NCBI GenBank assembly: GCA_021294815.2
Contig: CP095464.1
Span: 510,001 to 542,000, forward strand
Length of the DNA stretch: 32,000 nt
Reading direction: 5' to 3'
Origin: Verrucomicrobiota bacterium
GTDB taxonomy: Bacteria > Verrucomicrobiota > Verrucomicrobiia > Opitutales > LL51
The position numbers were made by a program, and so were the translations under genes. The notes beneath the pieces were generated by a model. That model saw only the letters and a program-made list of their open reading frames with translations, was not told the origin of the DNA and did no database searches. Every line of letters starts with the position of its first letter. Position 1 is the stretch's first letter. Positions 5,195 to 28,271 of the stretch are shown piece by piece.

Positions 5195-6226
5195 TCATTC
5201 ATGGTATTGAGCGGCGACCATCAAGGAACTGATTCCACTTCCGATACCGAGTAATGCTAGGTGATCACCGGGGTTAATCCGTTCGGATTCGAGTGCGAGC
5301 GAAAGCGTTATGGGTAAGGCGACAGAGCCGGTATTACCCAAAAGCGGAAAGGTTGAATAATCCGTACAGAGATCGAGTTCGAGGGCCTCATAGAGCGCCG
5401 CGCGATGGCGGAGTCCAACCTGATGGCAAATGGTATGTTGAAAAGTATTTTTTGTATAGCGATGCTCGTTTAAGAACTTTTGCCAATTGTCTTTTGCGAG
5501 CTGAATACCGAGTTCTAGGAGTTTTCCGGAATCTGTCTGCATCACGAGTCCTTCGTCGTCGCTATCGCCTTGGCAAAGTGTACATCCGGCACTGTTGCTA
5601 CTGCCTGTTATCGCTTGGATATGCAGTGCTGGTTGAGATAGAAGCGTATCGTGTGTGATGAGGGCAGCGACGGCACCCGACCCGATCGTAAGGTTTGCGA
5701 AAAATGCTTTTATTTCTTGACGGGAGATGGTGGTGTTGTGCTCAAGTTGAGCCAGCGTTCGATCGAGGAGTGGCTTCCCATTTTCTCCGCAAACGATGAG
5801 TGCCGAACGGATTCTTTGCGTTTCAATAAGCCCCGCGACCATCATGAGTGCATTGAGGAAGCCAAGACAGGCATTCGAAAGATCAAAAAAGAGCGTTTCT
5901 GGCGGAAGGTGTAGCGCTTGGTGTACGTAGGCGGCCGTTGCCGGTTCCAAACGATCGCGACAGACGGAGGCGTGGATCAGTAAATCGGGGACGATATCGG
6001 CTTTTTTGAGGACAGCTTGGCCGGCTAGTGTACTCGCGGCGGAGGGAAGGATGGGCTCTGGCCAAGCCCGGCGTTCCCGGATCCCGGTCATTAGCTCGAG
6101 GCGTCCGTGTGGGAGGTGTAGACGTTCATAGAGTGTACGTAAACGTGTTTCAATCGCCTCCGAAGTAATGACGACTGAAGGGAGGATATGTTCGATCGCG
6201 GCAATGGCGACGTGTTCGAATTTCAT
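5195..6226 (-). CDS. KAS III-like (FabH family) condensing enzyme
   Basis: 343 aa. Thiolase-fold Cys-His-Asn triad candidates in LSNACLGFLNA, ICHQVG and LLGNTGSVALP. The N-terminus is of the variant type with ...LPHGRLELMTGIRERR.... The substrate cannot be inferred from sequence alone. Confidence 0.7.
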   Translation of the reverse strand: MKFEHVAIAAIEHILPSVVITSEAIETRLRTLYERLHLPHGRLELMTGIRERRAWPEPILPSAASTLAGQAVLKKADIVPDLLIHASVCRDRLEPATAAYVHQALHLPPETLFFDLSNACLGFLNALMMVAGLIETQRIRSALIVCGENGKPLLDRTLAQLEHNTTISRQEIKAFFANLTIGSGAVAALITHDTLLSQPALHIQAITGSSNSAGCTLCQGDSDDEGLVMQTDSGKLLELGIQLAKDNWQKFLNEHRYTKNTFQHTICHQVGLRHRAALYEALELDLCTDYSTFPLLGNTGSVALPITLSLALESERINPGDHLALLGIGSGISSLMVAAQYHE

Positions 6227-6606
6227 CGCTCAGAATCGACAGGGGTCATCGCACGCGCTTTAATAACGAGGGCTTCGCGGTATTCGTTGGGTTCTGGGTC
6301 GCCCATCACTGAAACCTGCTTGCCGACGAGGTCAAGGAGCGGCATCCCCAGCACTAGCTCTGAAGTGTCGATGTAGGCCAAGATCTGACCATGATCCCCC
6401 GTGAGCGCATAATCATACCGGGGCCGGATCAAGCCGCCGAGAAAACACTTCAGCCGTCCGCCGTACGTTCTCGGGGAAAAATCTGACTTCGGCCGTTCGA
6501 CTACCTTTTTAGCAACGGGTTCTGGGCGTTTGGAGCGTGGGATTGCGGGGCGCGCCGTTAGAATTATGGGCACCAACGCGGCCAGCAAAGTAAATACATA
6601 TTTCAT
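6223..6606 (-). CDS. Small exported or membrane-anchored hypothetical protein
   Basis: 127 aa. The N-terminus MKYVFTLLAALVPIILTARP is signal-peptide or anchor-like, followed by a basic Pro/Lys linker. Its stop overlaps the KAS III-like start by 4 nt (6223-6226), which implies co-translation. I recognise no family. Confidence 0.5.
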   Translation of the reverse strand: MKYVFTLLAALVPIILTARPAIPRSKRPEPVAKKVVERPKSDFSPRTYGGRLKCFLGGLIRPRYDYALTGDHGQILAYIDTSELVLGMPLLDLVGKQVSVMGDPEPNEYREALVIKARAMTPVDSER

Positions 6607-6693
6607 GCGGTATATTTTACTGGAAAAGGTGTCTAATTTTTCAAGTCCGATTTCACACGCTGCGGTTTCTTGTTAAATGTTTTATAAAAAGCA

Positions 6694-6720
6694 TTGAACT
6701 TACCAAAAAAAACCTAAAAT
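6694..6720 (+). promoter_or_regulatory. Candidate sigma70-type promoter for the giant ORF
   Basis: TTGAAC (6694-6699), a 15-nt spacer, then TAAAAT (6715-6720), 27 nt upstream of the ATG at 6748. An AAGG Shine-Dalgarno-like element lies at 6737-6740. The spacer is short, so the call is weak. Confidence 0.25.
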
Positions 6721-6747
6721 GGTCCACTGAACAAAAAAGGTAAAGAT

Positions 6748-9700
6748 ATGGATAAAAAGGGAATTACGAAAATCTTAACGGGGATGCTATTCTTAAGCCC
6801 TCTCGTTTCGGAAGCCTGGAAGTACAGCACATACGTCGAGGAGCTTAGAGGTAAGTGGAAATTCACTAAAAACGTGAAAGACTGGAGCGATAATCCAATT
6901 GATGAAGGCAAGGAAGAAAAAGATGTCTACGAGGGCTCGCGGTCCGTTGTTATTTCTAAACCAAATACATTCGCTATTTTTGCCGATATCGATGGCAAAT
7001 TCAAAAATGATCACCAGATGTGGCTGGCGGAAACATCAAATGAGGACGGAGCCCAAGGCAAAGGTGTTATAAAAAATGGAAATTCAAAAACCGTGTCTAA
7101 TGGAACGCGATTCACCTACTACAAGCACCCGACGATTTATATTTCGAAAGGTAATCCCAAGGATTGCTCGATGGAAGCCGCGTTTTATGATCGCATCCCA
7201 ACCATTAAATCGGGAGAGCAAAATGTCAGTGTCTTATTCGAATTGAAGGCTCTCAAGGATGGCAAAGGCAGTCAATCCGTCAAAATTCCCACAGCGCCGT
7301 TGTTTTTCCCATTGAGCACAAAGGGCAAGGTCGGGGACGTCCCAATGTCCAAACAAATTTTCGACGCAGCTACAAAGAAAACATTTGAAGATCGTGCCAA
7401 GGAACCCTGTCTAGATTTTTCGAATACGCCGATTATACACATTGATTTAGGCTTAGGAAAAGCGACATACAACGGTGAAGAAATCGATGCGCAACGTTTC
7501 ATGGAATTTTACATGCTTCCGGCGGAGGTTTCTAAGTGGTATTTCCACCCCGCTATGGCGCTCCACCGTGCGGGATTACTCCAAGAGGAATTCTCTCCTG
7601 TGGAGTATACATTTTCAATTTCCAATGATATGACGCCAGATGGTATCAAGACTTGGCCCAGTAGCGTCGATGGCATGAAGGGTTTGGTCATTGATGATAC
7701 TCTCACAAGCATCAATTGCAAAGCCTGGGCCTTGAGTAAAGTCTCGTGCGCCGGAAATGAGGTAATGACTGTTGCATCTGCTCCTCGAACGAAGTACTTC
7801 AAGGATGGAACTGAGGCCGAGACAGATCAACTGGTCGGAGTGGAAATTCAACCCGATGGCGACATACTTCGGGCGGCGGTGTTCTATAAGATGGGGGGCA
7901 CTACAAAAGCCTTCACGGCGATTTACGGCTTCCTTCCCTACGACCCCGCGATGGCGATGATCCAAAAAATGTGCACGGGAGCACTACCAGATGGCGGCAA
8001 GAAGTTCACGGAGTTAGAGACCTACAGCGAGGAAATGAAGGCGGTTGCTCAGATCTTAAATGAATTGAAAGATGATCATGGAGGTGCTTTACCGGCCAAC
8101 TTCGAAAACGTCATCACCGCTATGGATAACTTGAGCAGCATTGACGTTTTGGCATTAAAAGCATGGGACGACATTGCAAAGCTATCAGCAGACGACATGC
8201 TCAGTGCGCATGAGAAATATCTGAAACTTAAGCCAGAGAACCACGGGTTAGATGTTTTTGTAAGAGCTGCTGTGGAAAAACCCACAGGTATAAAGTGGGA
8301 CGATAACTGGACGTACGCAGGTCATAAGAAGACTGTTGAAGATGAAGTTGATAAAAAATTAGGGTCGACAACAGGTACGAAGCCACAAGCCCATAACTAT
8401 GTTCAGTTTAGACTAGCCATAAACGACTTAAAAAGAGACAAGGCAGATACTAATGCGCTCAAGATTGCTGCGAAGAAGTTAGCGGACCTTTTAGGCGTTA
8501 AGAGGCCAACTGACGGCGTCTTAACCAAGGCAGAAATTGAAGCAGAAGAGGAGAAACTGAGGGAAGATTTTGAAGCGCTTGACGGGAAGACGAAAGGAAC
8601 AGAGTTCTGGAATGCGTATGACGCAATGAACATCAAGAAAGGAGCTCCCGCGAAAGATGTCGAGGTGGCGATCAATAAATTCCTCAATGAGAATAATTGC
8701 AATAAAGCCCTAACAGATCAATTAAATGCGTGGTTGGAGTGCTATAAAGCTGGAGAGGCGATTAATACTCAGATCAATGCTGTTCCGGATGATGTTTCTA
8801 AACTGACAAAGCCTTCAGATGCACAAAAAGCCCTTGAAGATGCTCAAAAGAAATTTGACGCCCTCAAAGCTCTTCTCGAGAAAGGTGGTGGTAAATTCGA
8901 AAAGAAACCTGCCGGCGGCGGTGGTGGCGGTGAAAATGGTACAGCCATCCTTGCGAAGTTGCCGGGTGACAACGAGGCTAAGAAAGACCTCGATGCGTTT
9001 TTAGGTATGCCGGAGAACGGAAAGCTGAAAGATGCCATTGCTGAAATCGATGCGCTTGCAATTAAGGCGGATACGCTGCCGATGGCTTTGATTAAGACTC
9101 TAGATGATGCAAATAAAATAGACAACTCGGTGTTTCGAGCTCAATTATGTGCATACGTAGAGCTCCTAAAAACAGTGCGAAAGTACAATGAAACTAACAC
9201 ACCGAAGAATTTGGCGGAAGTCAAAAAGGCTTTGACGACATTTCAAGAGACCAAGGTATGGACACCTGCGGAAATCACGGCGAAAACCGATGCAATTAAG
9301 GCGGCTGCAAAGAAACTCAGAGAAGAGCATGCGGCGTTCGATAAAGCGATAAAAGAGAGCATTGAGGCTAAGCCAGTAAAGAAGATCAATGACTATACTA
9401 GTGATGATAAATTACAGCAGAAATTAAGTGCGTATGGAGCATATGTAAATTACATGAATCTTGCAGAAGGAGAAGATTGGGATACCTTTTTTTCCGATGC
9501 AGTTCCGCCTCCGCCTCCGCCTCCGCCTCCGCCGGGAAAGGGGCCGAGGAAGGATACCAAGCAGGCTCATATTGAATCTGCCCAACAAAACCTCACCGAA
9601 CTCACAAAACTTTTAAACAGTGCAGAGCATCACGACGAACCGACACCTCCTGGGGTATGGACTTGGAAAGAGATTGACGCTAATACGAACAAATTTAAAG

Positions 9701-16191: not shown

Positions 16192-17037
16192 TTGGTGGAA
16201 GAGACGTTGTTGGAGTTGATGAAGCGTGCGGTCCGGTTTTTAGAGCAACGGGGTGTGCCGAGGCCGAAATGCGATGTCGAATGGATGTTTTCCACCATGC
16301 TCGGATACCAACGTCTGGCGCTCTATCTCAACGGGCACAGGACGATTAGTACTCATCAAAAGCAACAGCTTCGAACGTGGCTTCAGCGCCGAGCACAACG
16401 GGAACCGCTACAGTATATTCTAGAAAAAGTCGAGTTTTACGGCATATCCCTTCATGTTGACCCACGCGTTTTAATTCCGCGACCAGAGACGGAATTTTTA
16501 GTCGATTGGCTGTGTACCCAGCAGGTGCAGCAACCCAAAACGATTTTAGATCTCGGCACCGGTAGTGGCGCGATAGCGATTGCGCTCGCGAATCATTTCC
16601 CGGAAGCCCAAGTCGTGGCCGTAGATATTTCGCCTGATGCGCTTGAGGTTGCACAAGAAAATGCACGTCATCACCAAATTTCAAACATTCACTTTATCGT
16701 TTCAGATTGGTTTAAAAATATTCCGCAGCAGCGTTTTGATTGGATTATTGCGAATCCGCCTTACTTAACCGAAGAAGAGTACGCAACCGCAGAAGCAGAA
16801 GTCCGACAATATGAACCGAAAAATGCCCTCGTTGCTGAGCAAGAAGGCTTTCAGCACCTTGATCAGATTTTACAGACAGCGCCCCGGTTTCTTCAATCAC
16901 AGGGTATAGTCGCTTTAGAAACGGGCATCCTCCATTCCCATATTTTACAAGAACGCTACCAAGCTTACAGGATGACGAAAATCCTCCAGGATCTTACAGG
17001 CCGTGACCGCTTTTTCATCGCAATGAACGGTGGGTGA
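16192..17037 (+). CDS. prmC: Release-factor glutamine N5-methyltransferase (PrmC/HemK)
   Basis: 281 aa. SAM motif ILDLGTGSGAIAIALA, catalytic IANPPY, and PLQYILEKVEFYGISLHVDPRVLIPRPETE. The start is ambiguous: TTG 16192, GTG 16195 or ATG 16219. An in-frame stop lies at 16186. Confidence 0.88.
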   Translation: MVEETLLELMKRAVRFLEQRGVPRPKCDVEWMFSTMLGYQRLALYLNGHRTISTHQKQQLRTWLQRRAQREPLQYILEKVEFYGISLHVDPRVLIPRPETEFLVDWLCTQQVQQPKTILDLGTGSGAIAIALANHFPEAQVVAVDISPDALEVAQENARHHQISNIHFIVSDWFKNIPQQRFDWIIANPPYLTEEEYATAEAEVRQYEPKNALVAEQEGFQHLDQILQTAPRFLQSQGIVALETGILHSHILQERYQAYRMTKILQDLTGRDRFFIAMNGG

Positions 17038-17040
17038 GGC

Positions 17041-17068
17041 TTGCTATCTTTCAAAAAATCATTACAAG
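17041..17068 (+). promoter_or_regulatory. Weak candidate internal promoter upstream of sctS
   Basis: TTGCTA (17041-17046), a 16-nt spacer, TACAAG (17063-17068), 21 nt before the sctS ATG. The -10 is poor, and the gene may instead be read through from prmC. Confidence 0.2.
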
Positions 17069-17089
17069 TAGTGGCTGGATAGGGGTGGT

Positions 17090-17359
17090 ATGGATCAGGA
17101 TTTCATCATCAACATTACGGAGCAGGCGATGTTGCTCGTGCTCATCCTCTCGATGCCTCCGATCTTGATTGCGACTTGCGTCGGGTTAATGACGAGCCTA
17201 CTCCAAGCCCTAACGCAGATCCAGGAACAGACGCTGAGTTTCGCGATCAAACTCTTTTTCACCGTACTCGTCCTGTCGCTTTCGGCGTATTGGATTGGTG
17301 ATCAGCTGATGGCCTTTGCGAACTTCTTGTTTACTTCATTTGCGACGATTATCCGATGA
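17090..17359 (+). CDS. sctS: Type III secretion export-gate protein SctS (YscS/CdsS/FliQ family)
   Basis: 89 aa. LLVLILSMPPILIATCVGLMTSLLQALTQIQEQTLSFAIKL is nearly the YscS block LSMPP.L.A..VG...SL.QALTQIQEQTL.F.IKL. It is less like the FliQ version. Confidence 0.88.
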   Translation: MDQDFIINITEQAMLLVLILSMPPILIATCVGLMTSLLQALTQIQEQTLSFAIKLFFTVLVLSLSAYWIGDQLMAFANFLFTSFATIIR

Positions 17360-18144
17360 ATCCAGGGATCCAATACCTCGGCGGGGTGCTCATGATGATG
17401 ATGCTCTGCCTTGTGCGTCTCGCCGCGGCGCTTTCGTTGACGCCAGTTTTCGCGAAGCAGTACATTATGGGAACGGGACGAAATGTTGTGATCTTAGCGA
17501 TGGCACTTCCGCTATTTTACACGGTTTTCCCGGAATGTCCATCGACGCAGCTTCCGATTTCGATCCTGATTTTAACGATCTGCAAAGAAGTGATTATTGG
17601 AGCGCTTTTGGGATATCTTTCGGGCTTTATTTTTTACGCTGCGGATAGCGTCGGGTTTATTATCGATATTCAACGGGGATCGTCGATGGCGATGACGTTT
17701 GACCCAGTTGCGGGTTCACAGACCTCCTTAATCGGTAGCTTTTTGACGCAGATGATCGCAACGCTGTTTTTTACGATGGGGGGATTCTTGTTCTTCCTCG
17801 GACTGATCTACCAGACCTACATTATCTGGCCGGTTTTCGGGTTTTATCCGACATTTGACGCCAATTTCCCAGCATTTGTGATGTCCTTTGTCGACGATCT
17901 CATGGAGGTTATTTTCTGTTTTTCAGCTCCGATTCTCCTTGTTTTATTTCTCTCGGAATTTGGACTCGGTATGATCAGTCGGTTCGCGCCGCAGCTAAAC
18001 GTATTCTTTATGGCGATGCCGGTCAAGAGCTGGCTATCGATGTTTTTTTTACTGTTTTACTTTTCGTTGCTTGGAGAACTGTTCCACTACTACTTCTTTA
18101 CGCAGAGTAAGATGGCGTTGTTCGTCAATAAGGTGTTTCATTAA
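17356..18144 (+). CDS. sctT: Type III secretion export-gate protein SctT (YscT/CdsT/FliR family)
   Basis: 262 aa, polytopic membrane protein. ATGA overlap with the sctS stop. The position and length fit the S-T-U order. N-terminal ...LTPVFAKQYIMG... resembles YscT. Confidence 0.8.
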   Translation: MNPGIQYLGGVLMMMMLCLVRLAAALSLTPVFAKQYIMGTGRNVVILAMALPLFYTVFPECPSTQLPISILILTICKEVIIGALLGYLSGFIFYAADSVGFIIDIQRGSSMAMTFDPVAGSQTSLIGSFLTQMIATLFFTMGGFLFFLGLIYQTYIIWPVFGFYPTFDANFPAFVMSFVDDLMEVIFCFSAPILLVLFLSEFGLGMISRFAPQLNVFFMAMPVKSWLSMFFLLFYFSLLGELFHYYFFTQSKMALFVNKVFH

Positions 18145-18146
18145 CG

Positions 18147-19238
18147 ATGGGAGAAAAGACTGAAGAGCCGACACCGAAAAGAATCCGCGATGCCCGGAAT
18201 AAAGGGAATATCGCCAAGAGTCAGGACGTTACCTCGACCGCAACCCTCATCGGTGCGTTTTGTTTTGTCGGCCTCGGTTGGGATTCACACCTTAATGATC
18301 TGGCCGAGCTTATGCTCATTCCGACGGTTTTTATCGGCAACTGTAACCTTGCGGACTACAAAGATCAAGTTCTCTGGGCGGTTGTGGCCAAATCGGGAGC
18401 GATCATTACGCCTTGTCTTGCGATGGTTGCGCTGATGGGGCTCATTGCGAATTTTGCGCAAGTGGGACTTTTATTTACGACGCAGCCGATTATGCCGGAT
18501 CTCAACAAGATCAATCCGATATCGAAAGCGCAACAGATGTTTTCGATGAAAAATATCGTTGAGATGCTCAAATCGACGGTCAAAATTTTATTTCTCGGAT
18601 TTTTAATTTATGGTCTCATCAAGAGTGTTTTTGATGACTTGTTGCTCTTGCCGTACTGTGGATTAGGGGGTGTGTTTAGTATTTTAGGTCCGGTGATGAA
18701 GGACTTTGCGAAGCTCGTGATTTTCGCATACATTGCGGTTGCGGCGGTCGACTACGCCTACCAGAAATACAACTGGAAGCAACAGCTTATGATGAGTAAG
18801 GACGAGATCAAGCAAGAGTACAAAGAATCCGAAGGTGATGGGCAGGTCAAAAGTAAACGTAAGCAGATCCACCAGGAGATGATGGAGGAAGACCCGCCAC
18901 AGCGCACAAAACACGCATCCGCTTTAGTCACAAACCCGGAGCACGTCGCCGTTGCATTGCTCTATAATTTCGAACAACCGATTTTTCTTCTACCGATTGT
19001 ATTGGCGAAAGGCGTAGGAAGGGTCGCCGAAGAGATGATCAAAGTCGCTAAAGACGAAGGGATTCCCATTGTCCGGAACGTTCCACTCGCTCACGCACTA
19101 TTGGATACTTCCCAAGTCATGCGCTACATTCCGCGCGAACTCATTCTTCCGGTTGCCGAAGTCCTCCGCTGGGTCAAAGAAGCTCGCTCCCCGCAGTATC
19201 AGGGCCCGCTCATTCGGGATGATGAGGACAATTTTTAA
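18147..19238 (+). CDS. sctU: Type III secretion autoprotease / substrate-specificity switch SctU (YscU/CdsU/FlhB family)
   Basis: 363 aa. The N-terminus MGEKTEEPTPKRIRDARNKGNIAKSQD matches the YscU/CdsU signature. Four TM segments, MSKDEIKQEYKESEGD, the autocleavage region VTNPEHVAVAL (NPEH at 18933-18944, canonical NPTH), and the C-terminal IVRNVPLAHALL...IPRELILPVAEVLRWV. Confidence 0.9.
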   Translation: MGEKTEEPTPKRIRDARNKGNIAKSQDVTSTATLIGAFCFVGLGWDSHLNDLAELMLIPTVFIGNCNLADYKDQVLWAVVAKSGAIITPCLAMVALMGLIANFAQVGLLFTTQPIMPDLNKINPISKAQQMFSMKNIVEMLKSTVKILFLGFLIYGLIKSVFDDLLLLPYCGLGGVFSILGPVMKDFAKLVIFAYIAVAAVDYAYQKYNWKQQLMMSKDEIKQEYKESEGDGQVKSKRKQIHQEMMEEDPPQRTKHASALVTNPEHVAVALLYNFEQPIFLLPIVLAKGVGRVAEEMIKVAKDEGIPIVRNVPLAHALLDTSQVMRYIPRELILPVAEVLRWVKEARSPQYQGPLIRDDEDNF

Positions 19239-19299: not shown

Positions 19300-20052
19300 G
19301 TGAGTACGACTAAAAAATTGATGGCGTTATGGGTCCTCTTCCAAGGAAGTTGGGGAATACAAAAAGTTTTAGGGAGTGCCTCGCTATTTCCGGAATCGCT
19401 GATCCAAGAGATCCATGATAATCTCGAGAGCGGTGATGAAATAGAAAAAACTCTATCGGTGATGCGCAGCCTGTTTCGTTTGCATATTGGACCTTACACT
19501 CAAGATAACTTTAACGTTCATAATTTGGCGTTTTCCACACCGGTAATGAAAGTTCTTCTGCGCCAGCAGGCACAAGAAGGTGTGACCAAGGGTGATGATA
19601 TTTTGGGAATTTTGTCATTCTTATGTCAGTTGCCGGTCATTACACTTGATGTTACGGAAGATAGCACGGGCCCTGGAAATCCTGTTAATTTTTTTCGCCG
19701 CATAACGATTTGCTTCCCAGGAGAAGTTGAAAATCCAGCGGCACTCTATCTTCAAAACTCCGGCGATTTGCCGGCACTACGGAATCAATTTGAGGTGAGC
19801 ACCTATGCGATCCCTGAGGACGCGGATACAGACGATGCGATCCGTCAGGTGATTTTAACGGATGGTGGGCGTATTGGCGATGATGATGGCTGGTCATCCA
19901 ACGCGTACTACCTTTCCGATTGGGCCCATTTGTGGAAGCAGGGAGAGCTTCTATTTTTCATTCGCCACCACACGGCACAATCGCTTCTGTGGGTATGTTA
20001 CAACGACAATGGCGACGGATTTTTCCAGGTCCACGATGAGAATGGTGCATAA
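19300..20052 (+). CDS. Acidic hypothetical protein downstream of sctU
   Basis: 250-aa ORF with a GTG start at 19300 (alternative ATG at 19321, MALWVLFQG...). A 61-nt AT-rich gap separates it from sctU. No motif recognised. The C-terminal third is Asp/Gly-rich (DADTDDAIRQVILTDGGRIGDDDGW...YNDNGDGFFQVHDENGA). Confidence 0.5.
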   Translation: MSTTKKLMALWVLFQGSWGIQKVLGSASLFPESLIQEIHDNLESGDEIEKTLSVMRSLFRLHIGPYTQDNFNVHNLAFSTPVMKVLLRQQAQEGVTKGDDILGILSFLCQLPVITLDVTEDSTGPGNPVNFFRRITICFPGEVENPAALYLQNSGDLPALRNQFEVSTYAIPEDADTDDAIRQVILTDGGRIGDDDGWSSNAYYLSDWAHLWKQGELLFFIRHHTAQSLLWVCYNDNGDGFFQVHDENGA

Positions 20053-25835: not shown

Positions 25836-26312
25836 TTACAGCATTGGTCCAGCGGGCGCTTCTTCAGTGTCCTCTTCTTCGATAAACTGGATTTCGTCTT
25901 TCGGGAGGTCACCTTGAAGGTAACTTGCTATTTTGTCTTTTTCTTGGAGGTTACGCTCGATAAATTTTTCTAAAACTTTTTTGAAATTTTCAAGATCAAG
26001 AAAATCCTTGTAAAGGAGATGTGCCATACCGATTTGCTTATTGTCGGCGTCGTAGCTAAAAGTCATTCCGCCAGAAGTAGGTTGCCCATTTTCGTAAACG
26101 TAGTGTCTCAGGATTTCTTTTCGGCCGAAATCAGGAAGCTCTCCCAGCTCAGAATAGAGAATGAGACCGTTAAAATGCTCATTAAACTTCAGGTGAACTT
26201 GCATATCATCGCCAACCGCAAGACAGCAGTAAGCGTCCTCATCGATTTCAAGTTCCGCTCCAATTTCATTCCCAAAATCCTTGATCACTTGCTCCATTAA
26301 CTCTTTGGACAT
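25836..26312 (-). CDS. Class I type III secretion chaperone (CesT/Tir-chaperone fold, Slc1-like)
   Basis: 158 aa, acidic. The layout MSKELMEQVIKDFGNEIGAELEIDEDAYCCLAVGDDMQVHLKFNEHFNGLILYSELGELPD...GGMTFSYDADNKQIGMAHLL...LENFKKVLEKFIE follows the CesT-family pattern (ligand-naming N-helix, 'D..g.c.l.v......l......l.l...lg.lp', C-terminal dimer helix). It closely parallels chlamydial Slc1 as I recall it, including an unstructured tail. Confidence 0.65.
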   Translation of the reverse strand: MSKELMEQVIKDFGNEIGAELEIDEDAYCCLAVGDDMQVHLKFNEHFNGLILYSELGELPDFGRKEILRHYVYENGQPTSGGMTFSYDADNKQIGMAHLLYKDFLDLENFKKVLEKFIERNLQEKDKIASYLQGDLPKDEIQFIEEEDTEEAPAGPML

Positions 26313-26363: not shown

Positions 26364-28271
26364 TTAAATATTTTGCGCCAGTTGTTTAAGATTGTCACGG
26401 ATAGCTGCGGCGACAACTGATGGACGTAGCGACTCAAAGTGTTCGGGATCGGGTGCGCGCAGGATTGTAACCGGAGCGTCATATCCGGGGCGTGTTTTTT
26501 CAGGACTAGTTGGACCAAAAAGCACAAGCGTCGGAATACTAATAAAGTTCGCCAGATGGACGCCCCCTGTATCGTTACCCACCACCAACCGGCAATGCGC
26601 AAGCTCGTCAAAGAACATGCATAGGTCGGTTTTCCCTGCACGATCAACAATACGCGGATTGTTGGGAAAGCGTTCCTTAATGGCCTGTGTAATAGGAACA
26701 TCCTGTTGACCGCCGAAAAGCACGAACCGCGCATCGATTTGCGGCAAAAGCTCCTGAATTAGTGCGACCCAATGTTCGATGGGCCAACGTTTAGGGCTAT
26801 GATTCGCGCTTCCGCAGATGAGACCGATATCATTGCGCTGCGGAATTCCAGTTTTGATGGCCGTTCGATCGCAGATTCCAGTGTACCCCATCTGGCGTGC
26901 GAAGTAGAGATGATCCTCCATCTGATGCGAGTGCTCTGGATTGGGCAACGTCATCAGAACATAATCGCAGAAAAACGGGCACTTTTTTTTCGGAAACCGC
27001 AACGCGAACGTATGTCGGGCCCCGAGAATCACACCCCCAATGTCACCGCGGACAGAATTATACATGCGTAGACAGATATCGGGCGTCAAGGCCCGAAATT
27101 GCCAAAGCAGCTTGTAGTGAATCGCACCGCGTTTTGGCAAGGACAGAACCTGGTTAACGGGTAGCCCATACCGTTCTCGCAATAGTTCTAAAAAGGGCGC
27201 AAAGTGTGGTTGAGCGACAAGCGAAATCTCTGCCGTCGGATGAGCGTAGCGGACCGCTCGGACAAGCGGTAGGAGCATGACGACATCACCGAGCCAATTG
27301 GGCATGTAGAGAAAAATCTTCGTCGGGCGTAGTTTAGAAGGGTCCGCGATGCTCGGATATTGAGGCAAGCTGAGCCAATCGCTGAGCTGATTGCAGACAT
27401 TCCAACGGTTATGAACCCAGAGCCAGTCGCAGCAGGTAGCGGTATCCGACAAGAGCTTCTTTTCGAGCCATGCATTCATAGCCGTCGTGATGCCGTCGGT
27501 GTTGTAACGTTGGTTGCCAATTTTTGGTTTCAGCGTCAGGCGCTCTACCGTGCAGTGAGCTTGGAAAACACCCGTCCTCTTCGGGAAAAGCATGTAGATG
27601 GGGCCGTGAAATTGTCGGTAGAGTGCATCGGGGAGGTGCGTTGTCGAAGCGAGATGGCCTAAAAAGTCACAAAGGACGCCGGAGCCGCACGCATTTTGAT
27701 CGAAAAGAATGACAACAATCCCCTTATGTTTGAGAATTTTTCGTGCTTCGCGGAGACCTTGATGTCGCGCTAATAATTGAAGGCCAAAGCGCCCACGCGT
27801 TTTTCGGACCCATGCTTCGAGTGCCTTGTTTTTAAAGGGGCGGTAGAGGACACCGATTTCACGCTCTTTGAGCTCCGGTACCAGAAGCGGAAGAACCGTC
27901 ATGGCCTCCATCTGCGAGAAATGGGGAAGGAGGATGATCGTCGGCTGATTTTTAGCGGTTTCGAGGCACTGTCGAATGGAAACGTCGATCGTAAACGCGC
28001 GGCGAATCTTTTCCTCGGAAAGAAAGGGCATAGCCACCGCTAGTAGGCCGAGTTCGACCATTCGGATGGAACTTTGGAGGGCGAGTTTTTTACACTCACG
28101 GCGCGTTTTTCCGGGGAAAGCACCCAGAAAGTTTTCAATTGTAATTTTACGGCGGCGCCGAAAGATAAAGAAAAAAAGACGCCCGACAACCGAACAGATA
28201 AGCGAAATGATCGGGAGCGGAAGGTGTGCGACAATCCAGCCGACACTATTGAGTATCCAGGAGGTGAACAT
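26364..28271 (-). CDS. Fusion protein: LpxL/HtrB-type lipid A late acyltransferase (N-terminal) + family 9 glycosyltransferase (heptosyltransferase-like, C-terminal)
   Basis: 635 aa. Residues ~1-295 carry an N-terminal TM, the PHFSQMEAM (H-x4-E) acyltransferase motif, ILFDQNA, and the family's usual C-terminal block CDWLWVHNRW (compare E. coli LpxL ...YLWIHRRFK). Residues ~315-635 carry KIFLYMPNWLGDVVMLLPLVRAVRYAHPTAEISLV (GT9 N-terminal signature, compare WaaF PSWVGDMMM) and VVGNDTGGVHLANFISIPTLVLFGPTSP (GT9 C-terminal signature). No stop or frame change separates the halves. Confidence 0.75.
   Translation of the reverse strand: MFTSWILNSVGWIVAHLPLPIISLICSVVGRLFFFIFRRRRKITIENFLGAFPGKTRRECKKLALQSSIRMVELGLLAVAMPFLSEEKIRRAFTIDVSIRQCLETAKNQPTIILLPHFSQMEAMTVLPLLVPELKEREIGVLYRPFKNKALEAWVRKTRGRFGLQLLARHQGLREARKILKHKGIVVILFDQNACGSGVLCDFLGHLASTTHLPDALYRQFHGPIYMLFPKRTGVFQAHCTVERLTLKPKIGNQRYNTDGITTAMNAWLEKKLLSDTATCCDWLWVHNRWNVCNQLSDWLSLPQYPSIADPSKLRPTKIFLYMPNWLGDVVMLLPLVRAVRYAHPTAEISLVAQPHFAPFLELLRERYGLPVNQVLSLPKRGAIHYKLLWQFRALTPDICLRMYNSVRGDIGGVILGARHTFALRFPKKKCPFFCDYVLMTLPNPEHSHQMEDHLYFARQMGYTGICDRTAIKTGIPQRNDIGLICGSANHSPKRWPIEHWVALIQELLPQIDARFVLFGGQQDVPITQAIKERFPNNPRIVDRAGKTDLCMFFDELAHCRLVVGNDTGGVHLANFISIPTLVLFGPTSPEKTRPGYDAPVTILRAPDPEHFESLRPSVVAAAIRDNLKQLAQNI

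Follow-up and report, generated by a model that had tools for sequence, protein, structure and literature searches.

Among Gram-positive cocci, pneumococcal PspA/PspC and the streptococcal M proteins are alpha-helical surface antigens with a mosaic structure. Host-associated bacteria with small genomes are commonly regarded as clonal, with slow recombination. The envelope proteins known to be hypervariable and to recombine in intracellular bacteria, such as Wolbachia WSP, Orientia TSA56 and the chlamydial Pmps, are beta-barrel or autotransporter outer-membrane proteins. Here we describe a gene that recalls both groups in its mode of variation. It is located in a 32,000-nucleotide stretch of a metagenome-assembled Verrucomicrobiota genome of the order Opitutales (assembly GCA_021294815.2, contig CP095464.1, positions 510,001 to 542,000), hereafter the window, whose coordinates are used throughout. 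The longest open reading frame (ORF) of the window, 6748..12297 on the plus strand (locus tag LW808_002435), begins with ATG and runs intact for 1849 codons. Its product combines a conserved signal peptide with a mature part that is extremely variable and mosaic among closely related genomes.

Results

Eight alleles at one syntenic position

Besides the window allele, seven others were found at the same syntenic position, six full-length and one partial. The partial one, L003, encodes a 773-aa fragment on a 5.5-kb European Nucleotide Archive contig with atpA, trmD and rplS downstream; the L19 ribosomal proteins of this genome and of the window are 100% identical. Exact look-up of L19 and of a cluster-mate recovered six more syntenic contigs from Sequence Read Archive assemblies. 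These loci, designated as clade B, encode proteins of 1773 (L004), 2085 (L005), 1985 (L006), 1946 (L007), 2137 (L008) and 1967 (L011) residues. The length range of 1773-2137 aa arises from gain or loss of a helical module of about 125-135 residues.

Variability of the mature protein

Housekeeping proteins of the other loci are nearly identical to those of the window: 98.8-99.6% for AtpA, 98.4-98.5% for GyrA and 97.0-97.4% for TrmD, with 98.1-98.6% for the injectisome component SctU. The LW808_002435 protein, on the other hand, shows about 25% identity between the window and clade B over its N-terminal head domain and 21-28% in patches elsewhere. The same disparity is observed inside clade B, where GyrA is 99.0-99.9% identical whereas the big protein is only 40-73% identical. 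For instance, L011 and L005 have 99.9% identical GyrA but only 46% identity in this protein. The features needed to follow this variation along the gene are:

6748..6816, plus strand: signal peptide (aa 1-23), its n-, h- and c-regions read from the sequence, with predicted cleavage at SEA/W
6817..8067, plus strand: N-terminal mixed alpha/beta "head" domain (aa 24-440), alignable in all alleles, 25-28% identical to the window
6859..12629, no strand: hypervariable island, without detectable DNA homology to the clade-B loci (blastn against L004-L008)
12347..12385, plus strand: intrinsic terminator with a 13-bp stem (8 GC pairs), a 3-nt loop and a T-run, followed by TGTTTTTT

The island has sharp borders. 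Blastn homology to L004-L008 ends at position 6858, which is 42 nt past the signal-peptide coding region, and restarts at 12630 (12634 for L007), about 250 nt past the terminator. Beyond these borders, DNA identity to clade B amounts to 72-84% upstream and 87-92% downstream. The L003 allele is closer to that of the window, with a flank synonymous divergence (dS) of 0.09-0.25. Residues 965-1210 are 77% identical between the two (non-synonymous divergence, dN, 0.134), and residues 1211-1770 fall to about 20-26% identity with large indels.

Old and mosaic alleles

To put figures on the rate of change, dN/dS (omega) was calculated by the Nei-Gojobori method, with a 1947-codon housekeeping concatenate as internal control:

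L004, L005, L006 and L008 among themselves: housekeeping dS 0.074-0.086 and dN 0.001-0.002; N-domain dS 0.28-0.43 and dN 0.11-0.17; omega rising from about 0.02 to 0.33-0.42
L007 against L004, L005, L006 and L008: housekeeping dS about 0.40 and dN about 0.005; N-domain dS 0.40-0.50 and dN 0.16-0.19; omega rising from about 0.013 to 0.36-0.42
Window against clade B: housekeeping dS 0.39-0.59 and dN about 0.009-0.010; N-domain synonymous sites saturated (pS, the proportion of synonymous differences, 0.76-0.80) and dN about 0.9; omega 0.017-0.025 for housekeeping, not calculable for the N-domain

Thus, synonymous divergence within the gene is 4-5 times that of its flanks. Although the genome of L007 lies five times further away, its alleles are separated by no greater distance than the alleles of the close pairs, so that the ages of alleles and of genomes are uncoupled. 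Scanning identity in windows further revealed that the allele nearest to L005 is L004 in alignment columns 601-750 (79%), L007 in columns 901-1200 (64-72%) and L008 in columns 2101-2250 (92%), with non-partner pairs at 18-34%; L004 lacks columns 901-1200 entirely. Since nearest neighbours switch along the gene, it is a mosaic, shaped by recombinational exchange of allele segments together with gain and loss of modules. No intragenic DNA repeat longer than 23 nt was found as a possible recombination substrate. Collectively, these data demonstrate a constraint much weaker than that on housekeeping genes, old alleles and mosaicism.

A diversity-generating retroelement was considered as a source of this variation and rejected, since variation spans the whole mature protein with indels and module gain or loss, and no reverse transcriptase is present among the annotated ORFs of the window.

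Could simple drift account for these data? The gene might encode a weakly constrained periplasmic or envelope scaffold, i.e. a long helical spacer or structural protein whose sequence matters little apart from helicity and charge, which drifts fast in a small-population symbiont and gains or loses modules by slippage. Indeed, omega is below 1 everywhere, composition is conserved (K/E/A-rich, with an acidic body and a basic tail) while sequence is not, small exported ORFs nearby also evolve fast, and no outer-membrane export determinant was seen. However, drift alone cannot bring synonymous divergence to 4-5 times the flank value, nor make the alleles of a five-times-more-distant genome as close as those of near-identical genomes, nor produce segment-wise switches of the nearest neighbour. 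Sharp homology breakpoints just past the signal-peptide coding region and just past the terminator do not suit it either, and the head domain, with about 15% invariant positions at 25% identity, must be a constrained fold. GC content at third codon positions (GC3) is 0.47 in the gene versus 0.55-0.57 in gyrA, atpA and sctU. This lower value, which speaks for such a scaffold, fits relaxed codon selection, a bias of change towards AT in a gene that evolves fast, or another origin. On balance, we hold the scaffold to be quite unlikely.

The low GC3, the extreme divergence and the orphan status of the family would also suit a gene that is decaying or has lost its function, or an artefact from the assembly of a repetitive region. 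This explanation is hardly credible and effectively refuted: eight independent assemblies carry an open frame at the same position (1773-2137 codons, 773 in the truncated allele), the signal peptide and the terminator hairpin are retained in every allele, and the gene holds no long DNA repeats that could mislead an assembly. Because all eight alleles keep their frame and omega is 0.3-0.4, and not 1, the gene is judged functional from its sequence.

Signal peptide and architecture of the protein

The N-terminus of the window protein, MDKKGITKILTGMLFLSPLVSEA/W, has the layout of a signal peptidase I substrate, without a lipobox Cys by inspection. It is composed of MDKKGITK, the 12-residue hydrophobic core ILTGMLFLSPLV and SEA/W, whereas the six other alleles have MERKGITR, ILTGMLFLSPLI and SDA/W, with no Cys near the site. 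The signal peptide is identical across the six clade-B alleles, and the window allele differs from them by conservative changes alone. Within clade B, dN over the first 30 codons is 0-0.015, and the divergence of L011 starts right after the predicted cleavage site SDA/W. With a basic n-region, a core within the range of 10-15 residues, small residues at -3 and -1 and no lipobox, the protein is predicted to be exported through Sec and processed by signal peptidase I.

Downstream of the head domain, the protein is organized as follows:

8068..8505, plus strand: helical bridge (aa 441-586) with weak, partial module-like jackhmmer matches
8506..10788, plus strand: helical module array M1-M6, units of about 125-135 aa joined by G/P/H/D-rich linkers
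8914..8931, plus strand: Gly6 tract (aa 723-728) in the M1-M2 linker
9505..9534, plus strand: Pro10 tract (aa 920-929), encoded by a (CCGCCT)n microsatellite and placed in the loop that precedes the last helix of module 3
10789..12054, plus strand: C-terminal helical region (aa 1348-1769) with one more clear module at aa 1550-1663 (jackhmmer independent E-value, iE, 3.4e-16)
12055..12294, plus strand: Ser-rich, strongly basic tail (aa 1770-1849), presumed disordered from its composition

The head domain has about 15% invariant positions across alleles. It contains 5 of the 16 Cys residues of the protein (within aa 24-440), and only C221 (7408-7410) is conserved among them. The other invariants include H267 (7546-7548), located 46 residues further on, D233 and D360. 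A catalytic Cys-His pair, C221/H267, is possible in this domain. The single-sequence AlphaFold 2 model of the head was unusable, with a predicted local distance difference test score (pLDDT) of 32.7.

Modules of the window allele were delimited by segment phmmer and jackhmmer searches, with iE from 1e-14 to 1e-54. They occupy aa 587-721 (M1), 737-835 (M2), 833-964 (M3), 965-1099 (M4), 1100-1223 (M5, weak) and 1222-1347 (M6). By iterative hidden Markov model (HMM) search the allele carries at least six significant modules, namely M1-M4, M6 and the one at aa 1550-1663, in addition to the weak M5. Clade-B alleles carry 4-6 modules each at iE below 1e-8, plus weaker matches. From aligned paralogous modules together with the orthologue from L003, AlphaFold modelled M4 with a pLDDT of 86.3 and a predicted template modelling score (pTM) of 0.78. 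The model displays five helices, with a loop containing Pro ahead of the final one, and a G/H/D-rich linker that is disordered. The C-terminal helical region is the part most diverged from L003 (about 20-26% identity, with large indels).

The tail carries a charge opposite to that of the body. In the window allele the last 110 residues have a net charge of +9 and the entire protein -31; the corresponding values are +8 to +14 and -31 to -53 in the seven alleles tallied, and the eighth, L011, likewise ends in a Ser- and Arg/Lys-rich tail. The motif RRxRRQSPSSRNEAYxSSSSDSKS is common to the window and L003, while likeness across clades is one of composition and not of sequence. Conservation of the tail exceeds that of the body in five of the six clade-B alleles.

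A previous sequence-only reading of this DNA had described an isolated longest ORF with an AT-rich upstream region and a strong terminator, a Sec-like N-terminus, a Cys-containing N-terminal region without known motif, helical modules, Gly6 and Pro10 tracts, a basic Ser/Arg tail and no recognisable family. The present analysis bears out this outline: the frame of 1849 codons has a divergent neighbour, 32.6% GC upstream and a hairpin at 12347-12385; n-, h- and c-regions without lipobox recur among alleles; the head, with its 5 Cys, gave an empty PDB profile search; at least six module copies are significant by iterative HMM; both tracts and the tail are present; and neither Pfam, NCBIfam, PDB sequences and phmmer nor Foldseek with one module produced a match to a known family.

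A protein of no known family

Pfam and NCBIfam returned nothing at threshold for the 1849-aa protein. PDB sequences gave no accepted match with the whole protein, a six-allele head-domain profile or a 21-sequence module profile; the entry 6h9l, matched by the module profile at E 0.0017, was discarded as a compositional K/E/A-repeat match (bias 6.7 on a 21-bit score). An exhaustive phmmer search of aa 24-1200 against 1.84 billion representative proteins retrieved only the protein itself and one 773-aa partial orthologue. No relative was found by scanning GTDB species genomes with the N-domain or in two Joint Genome Institute metagenome scans, and a scan of the genome collection with the adjacent KAS III yielded only 21-26% identical KAS III of unrelated bacteria. 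Foldseek with the M4 model found no neighbour in PDB (best E 1.3, TM score at most 0.29) or among BFVD viral models.

The best Pfam match is FIVAR (PF07554) at aa 1599-1647, with 20.6-26.1 bits versus a cut-off of 29.2. It lies in the module at aa 1550-1663, the only one with a FIVAR-like stretch, and the family matches 1 of the 21 module sequences scanned and none of the five clade-B alleles scanned. A FIVAR/Ebh identity was rejected, as the match is a single sub-threshold stretch without Foldseek support. Spectrin repeats are three-helix units of about 106 aa; here, a single Spectrin_Anc-1 match stays below threshold (13.8 bits versus 33.2), Foldseek returned no spectrin and the module has five helices. 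Pfam gave no autotransporter match, and the last 80 or so residues follow the helical modules as a basic, Ser-rich tail of low complexity, with no C-terminal beta-barrel. Neither LPXTG nor choline-binding repeats occur in the protein. In the L004 gene (1799-7120 of that locus), residues 539-622 weakly match the toxin Membrane Localization Domain, a 4-helix bundle (PF11647; E 0.013, 16 bits versus a cut-off of 35). Being limited to the first module of one allele, this match is probably due to chance.

These searches indicate that the protein belongs to no known family, and that the family, its head domain and its helical module all appear to be new. Nevertheless, the family may be somewhat wider than is apparent, because the 50%-representative library searched with phmmer did not return the Logan-derived orthologues later found via the neighbouring gene, and the word-index protein search was uninformative for such a K/E/A-rich query: from the full-length sequence it retrieved this protein alone, and it did not recover the parent protein itself from the N-terminal 941 residues or from the six-allele N-domain profile.

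The polyproline tract is strain-specific

The Gly6 tract is conserved neither in position nor in length among the other alleles. The DNA of Pro10 is a near-perfect hexanucleotide microsatellite (four CCG CCT units followed by CCG CCG), and the tract aligns with short Pro-containing loops of other modules, such as PMPHLPEEP, VMPPPPGAPEP and IPSDTDPKV. It is absent from all six full-length orthologues, five of which lack any run of three or more Pro and one of which has a single PPP. Pro10 is thus a strain-specific repeat expansion and not a conserved actin-related feature.

The sequence-only reading had compared this tract with the profilin-binding FH1 regions of formins. What the window allele shares with TARP, VopL/VopF, Sca2/RickA and formin FH1 is its run of ten Pro next to Gly. 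On the other hand, there is one tract here and not an array, it sits in a module loop, and no actin-binding domain was detected: Pfam gave no match to a WH2/FH2-type domain anywhere in the protein, even at E up to 1, and no LKKV-type motif was found. Since the tract is missing from close relatives, an absence which that reading had itself named as a reason to give up the idea, is encoded by a microsatellite and is accompanied by no WH2/FH2-type domain, the analogy with FH1 and profilin binding was rejected.

Relation to the injectisome

The window also carries genes of an injectisome, which raises the question of whether the protein could be a host-delivered effector. The genes concerned are:

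15776-16141: FliO-like gene
25836-26312: CesT/SicP-type chaperone gene, a weak match in the window, with PF05932 on record for its orthologues

SctS, SctT and SctU (17090-19238) score above the NCBIfam equivalog cut-offs. Their genes lie 4.8 kb downstream of LW808_002435, past atpA, trmD, rplS and prmC, and the CesT-like gene is located 13.5 kb from it, beside gyrB. The export-apparatus genes (15776-19238, plus strand) are dispersed among housekeeping genes and do not form one island: the FliO-like gene stands beside rplS, then come prmC and sctS/T/U. They are under strong purifying selection, with an omega of about 0.02 (from the concatenate).

Such an effector would act inside the host cell after delivery by the injectisome, or by Sec and a second step such as a type II secretion system (T2SS) or vesicles, as is known for some chlamydial Sec-dependent proteins. 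Its action would be mediated by eukaryote-like linear motifs, namely the Pro-rich loops and a basic Ser/Arg tail resembling a nuclear localization signal or an SR-type sequence. In favour of this reading, effectors engaged in arms races are typically hypervariable, the genome has a conserved injectisome with a CesT-family chaperone gene nearby, and every allele has basic clusters in its tail (RRRRSQSP, GKRKS and SPKR.SRRR, for example); these tail motifs are, however, compositional and not conserved in sequence between clades. By inspection, the N-terminus, with its 12-residue hydrophobic core and SxA cleavage motif, is unlike type III signals. Furthermore, no chaperone gene is adjacent, the gene is monocistronic and outside any type III secretion operon, the polyproline tract is strain-specific and microsatellite-encoded, and no actin-binding or other eukaryote-like domain was found. 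A host-delivered effector thus appears unlikely. As for the earlier proposal of a host- or surface-interaction protein, its polyproline argument fails, while the idea itself gains from the extreme variability and mosaicism of the mature protein next to a conserved signal peptide. The injectisome and a nearby CesT-type gene on which that proposal also drew are indeed present, but their link to the big protein is one of genome co-occurrence only.

Gene neighbourhood

LW808_002435 is placed between the KAS III operon and an ASCH-like gene. Because it has a divergent neighbour upstream (6223-6606, minus strand) and a terminator at its 3' end, it is monocistronic. An equivalent hairpin with a T-run lies 3' of the gene in all seven other alleles. 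Upstream stands:

6607..6747, plus strand: AT-rich intergenic region of 141 bp, presumed promoter and 5' untranslated region, with 32.6% GC versus 48.4% in the window

This region belongs to the flank that is still alignable with the other loci (72-84% DNA identity), and no strong sigma-70 consensus was flagged in it. The housekeeping genes of the neighbourhood include mdh, a fabI-like gene, an aldolase gene, a murC-like gene, KAS III, atpA, trmD, rplS, prmC, gyrA/B and fabF. The source genome is closed, with a contig of 878,461 bp (878 kb).

The divergent ORF at 6223-6606 encodes 127 aa, overlaps the start of KAS III and resembles a signal peptide at its N-terminus (MKYVFTLLAALVPIILTA). No family matches it, its identity between clades is 58%, and it was not called in L004 or L007. 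Directly 3' of sctU, a 250-aa ORF (19300-20052, plus strand), also without family match, shows 55% identity between clades versus 98% for housekeeping proteins, yet 99.6% within clade B. A frameshift splits it in L005 (62 + 165 aa), and in the window and in L007 its N-terminus is extended by a stretch resembling a signal peptide. This ORF may represent a fast-evolving injectisome-associated or exported protein.

Some other ORFs of the window deserve comment. The ASCH-like ORF (12549-12998, plus strand) has a borderline Pfam score of 22.6 bits versus a cut-off of 21.2. Its orthologues measure 128-136 aa and are 95% identical from about position 12630 on, and L003 lacks the 5' half of the gene. 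Since the orthologues are of this length and alignable from about 12630, the true start is probably downstream of 12549. Similarly, the atpA ORF as listed (13068-14705, minus strand) starts with GTG and spans 545 aa, 34 codons more than the 511 aa called for most related loci (522 in L007), and its actual start is probably near 14603. Finally, the 635-aa protein at 26364-28271 (minus strand) is a fusion of a lipid A biosynthesis acyltransferase (PF03279) and a GT9 heptosyltransferase (PF01075).

Discussion

Considering these data together, we tentatively favour, without regarding it as established, the view that LW808_002435 encodes a Sec-exported modular protein, exposed on the envelope or released from it, whose diversity is kept by recombination because it meets a discriminating partner. 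This view builds on the architecture, the conserved signal peptide, the extreme variability, the mosaicism and the change in module number, each observed directly in the alleles; from these we infer that the protein is exported and located at the surface or outside the cell, and also what the selective agent is. The protein would consist of an N-terminal head of about 420 residues, a string of compact helical modules on short flexible linkers and a basic Ser-rich tail. Cleavage of the signal peptide would place the mature protein outside the cytoplasm, most likely exposed on the envelope or released from it. There it would meet a partner that favours diversity, either the bacterium's host or, possibly, phages or competing strains. 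This diversity would be maintained as lineages exchange allele segments and whole modules are gained or lost, with the conserved flanks and the signal-peptide coding region serving as recombination anchors. The basic tail, present in every allele, may hold the otherwise acidic protein on anionic envelope polymers, a guess from the charge distribution. The partner would most plausibly be a eukaryotic host, because the genome is closed at 878 kb and the injectisome is conserved; such a genome, with injectisome genes under strong purifying selection, fits a host-associated life.

Several points weigh against this view. Omega exceeds 1 in no 40-codon window (range 0.16-0.93), so that positive selection is not demonstrated, and relaxed constraint combined with recombination could yield much of the pattern. 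The signal peptide was recognized by inspection and conservation, and export remains a prediction. In diderm bacteria, Sec alone delivers proteins only to the periplasm, and no outer-membrane route (T2SS, type V barrel or lipidation) is visible in the protein or in the window. Furthermore, the two small neighbouring exported proteins are fast-evolving as well (55-58% identity between clades), and part of the variability signal may therefore be general to the non-housekeeping genes of this lineage.

If the favoured view of a recombining exported protein is carried to its full extent, LW808_002435 would be the founding member of a hitherto undescribed family, restricted to one genus, of variable exported proteins that recombine, with a new module fold and a new head domain. 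It would act as the main host-facing determinant of compatibility or evasion of a reduced-genome, injectisome-bearing Opitutales symbiont, as a verrucomicrobial counterpart of emm/pspA- or wsp-type antigenic diversity whose alleles are older than the species that carry them. We regard this complete scenario as possible but doubtful. A 5.8-kb locus is kept open in this lineage while its non-synonymous sites change about 100-fold faster than those elsewhere in the genome and segments of it are swapped across species-level lineages. The pattern of variability and its breakpoints, after the signal-peptide coding region and at the terminator, would mark the organism's contact with something that discriminates between strains. 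If this partner is the host, the gene could provide a strain-typing marker and a route to host specificity in an uncultured injectisome-bearing verrucomicrobial lineage. The head domain and the five-helix module, in turn, are two building blocks without recognisable relative in sequence or structure databases.

Comparison with known systems

Very long exported proteins with helical repeat units of about 125 aa are known among the FIVAR/GA-repeat adhesins, such as Staphylococcus aureus Ebh. Solved FIVAR-GA modules are three-helix bundles, whereas here a single FIVAR stretch stays below the cut-off and Foldseek found neither Ebh nor any other three-helix-bundle repeat.

With WSP, TSA56 and the chlamydial Pmps, the present locus has in common a small-genome host-associated bacterium in which one locus is far more variable than the others and mosaic segments are incongruent with the genome tree. 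In contrast to these proteins, no barrel or passenger-plus-barrel organization is predicted here, the C-terminus is of low complexity and Ser/Arg-rich, and no homology was found.

The resemblance to PspA/PspC and M proteins concerns the conserved signal peptide, the hypervariable and mosaic charged K/E/A-rich helical region generated by allele recombination, Pro-rich stretches that differ in length and a C-terminal part that varies less than the body. On the other hand, there is no sequence or fold relationship, the bacterium is a diderm of the Verrucomicrobiota, and the protein has neither an LPXTG nor a choline-binding anchor. Moreover, its compact five-helix modules differ from the dimeric coiled coil of those antigens, and its large head domain is non-helical. 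PspA/PspC and M protein, together with recombining envelope proteins such as WSP and TSA56, share part of their defining features with this protein and may be considered as its closest functional analogues, in the sense of analogy only: it qualifies as a member of none of these groups, nor of the FIVAR/Ebh adhesins, spectrin rods, autotransporters or FH1-type effectors. The family is new, and so are both building blocks, while hypervariable recombining exported proteins are, as a kind, already known.

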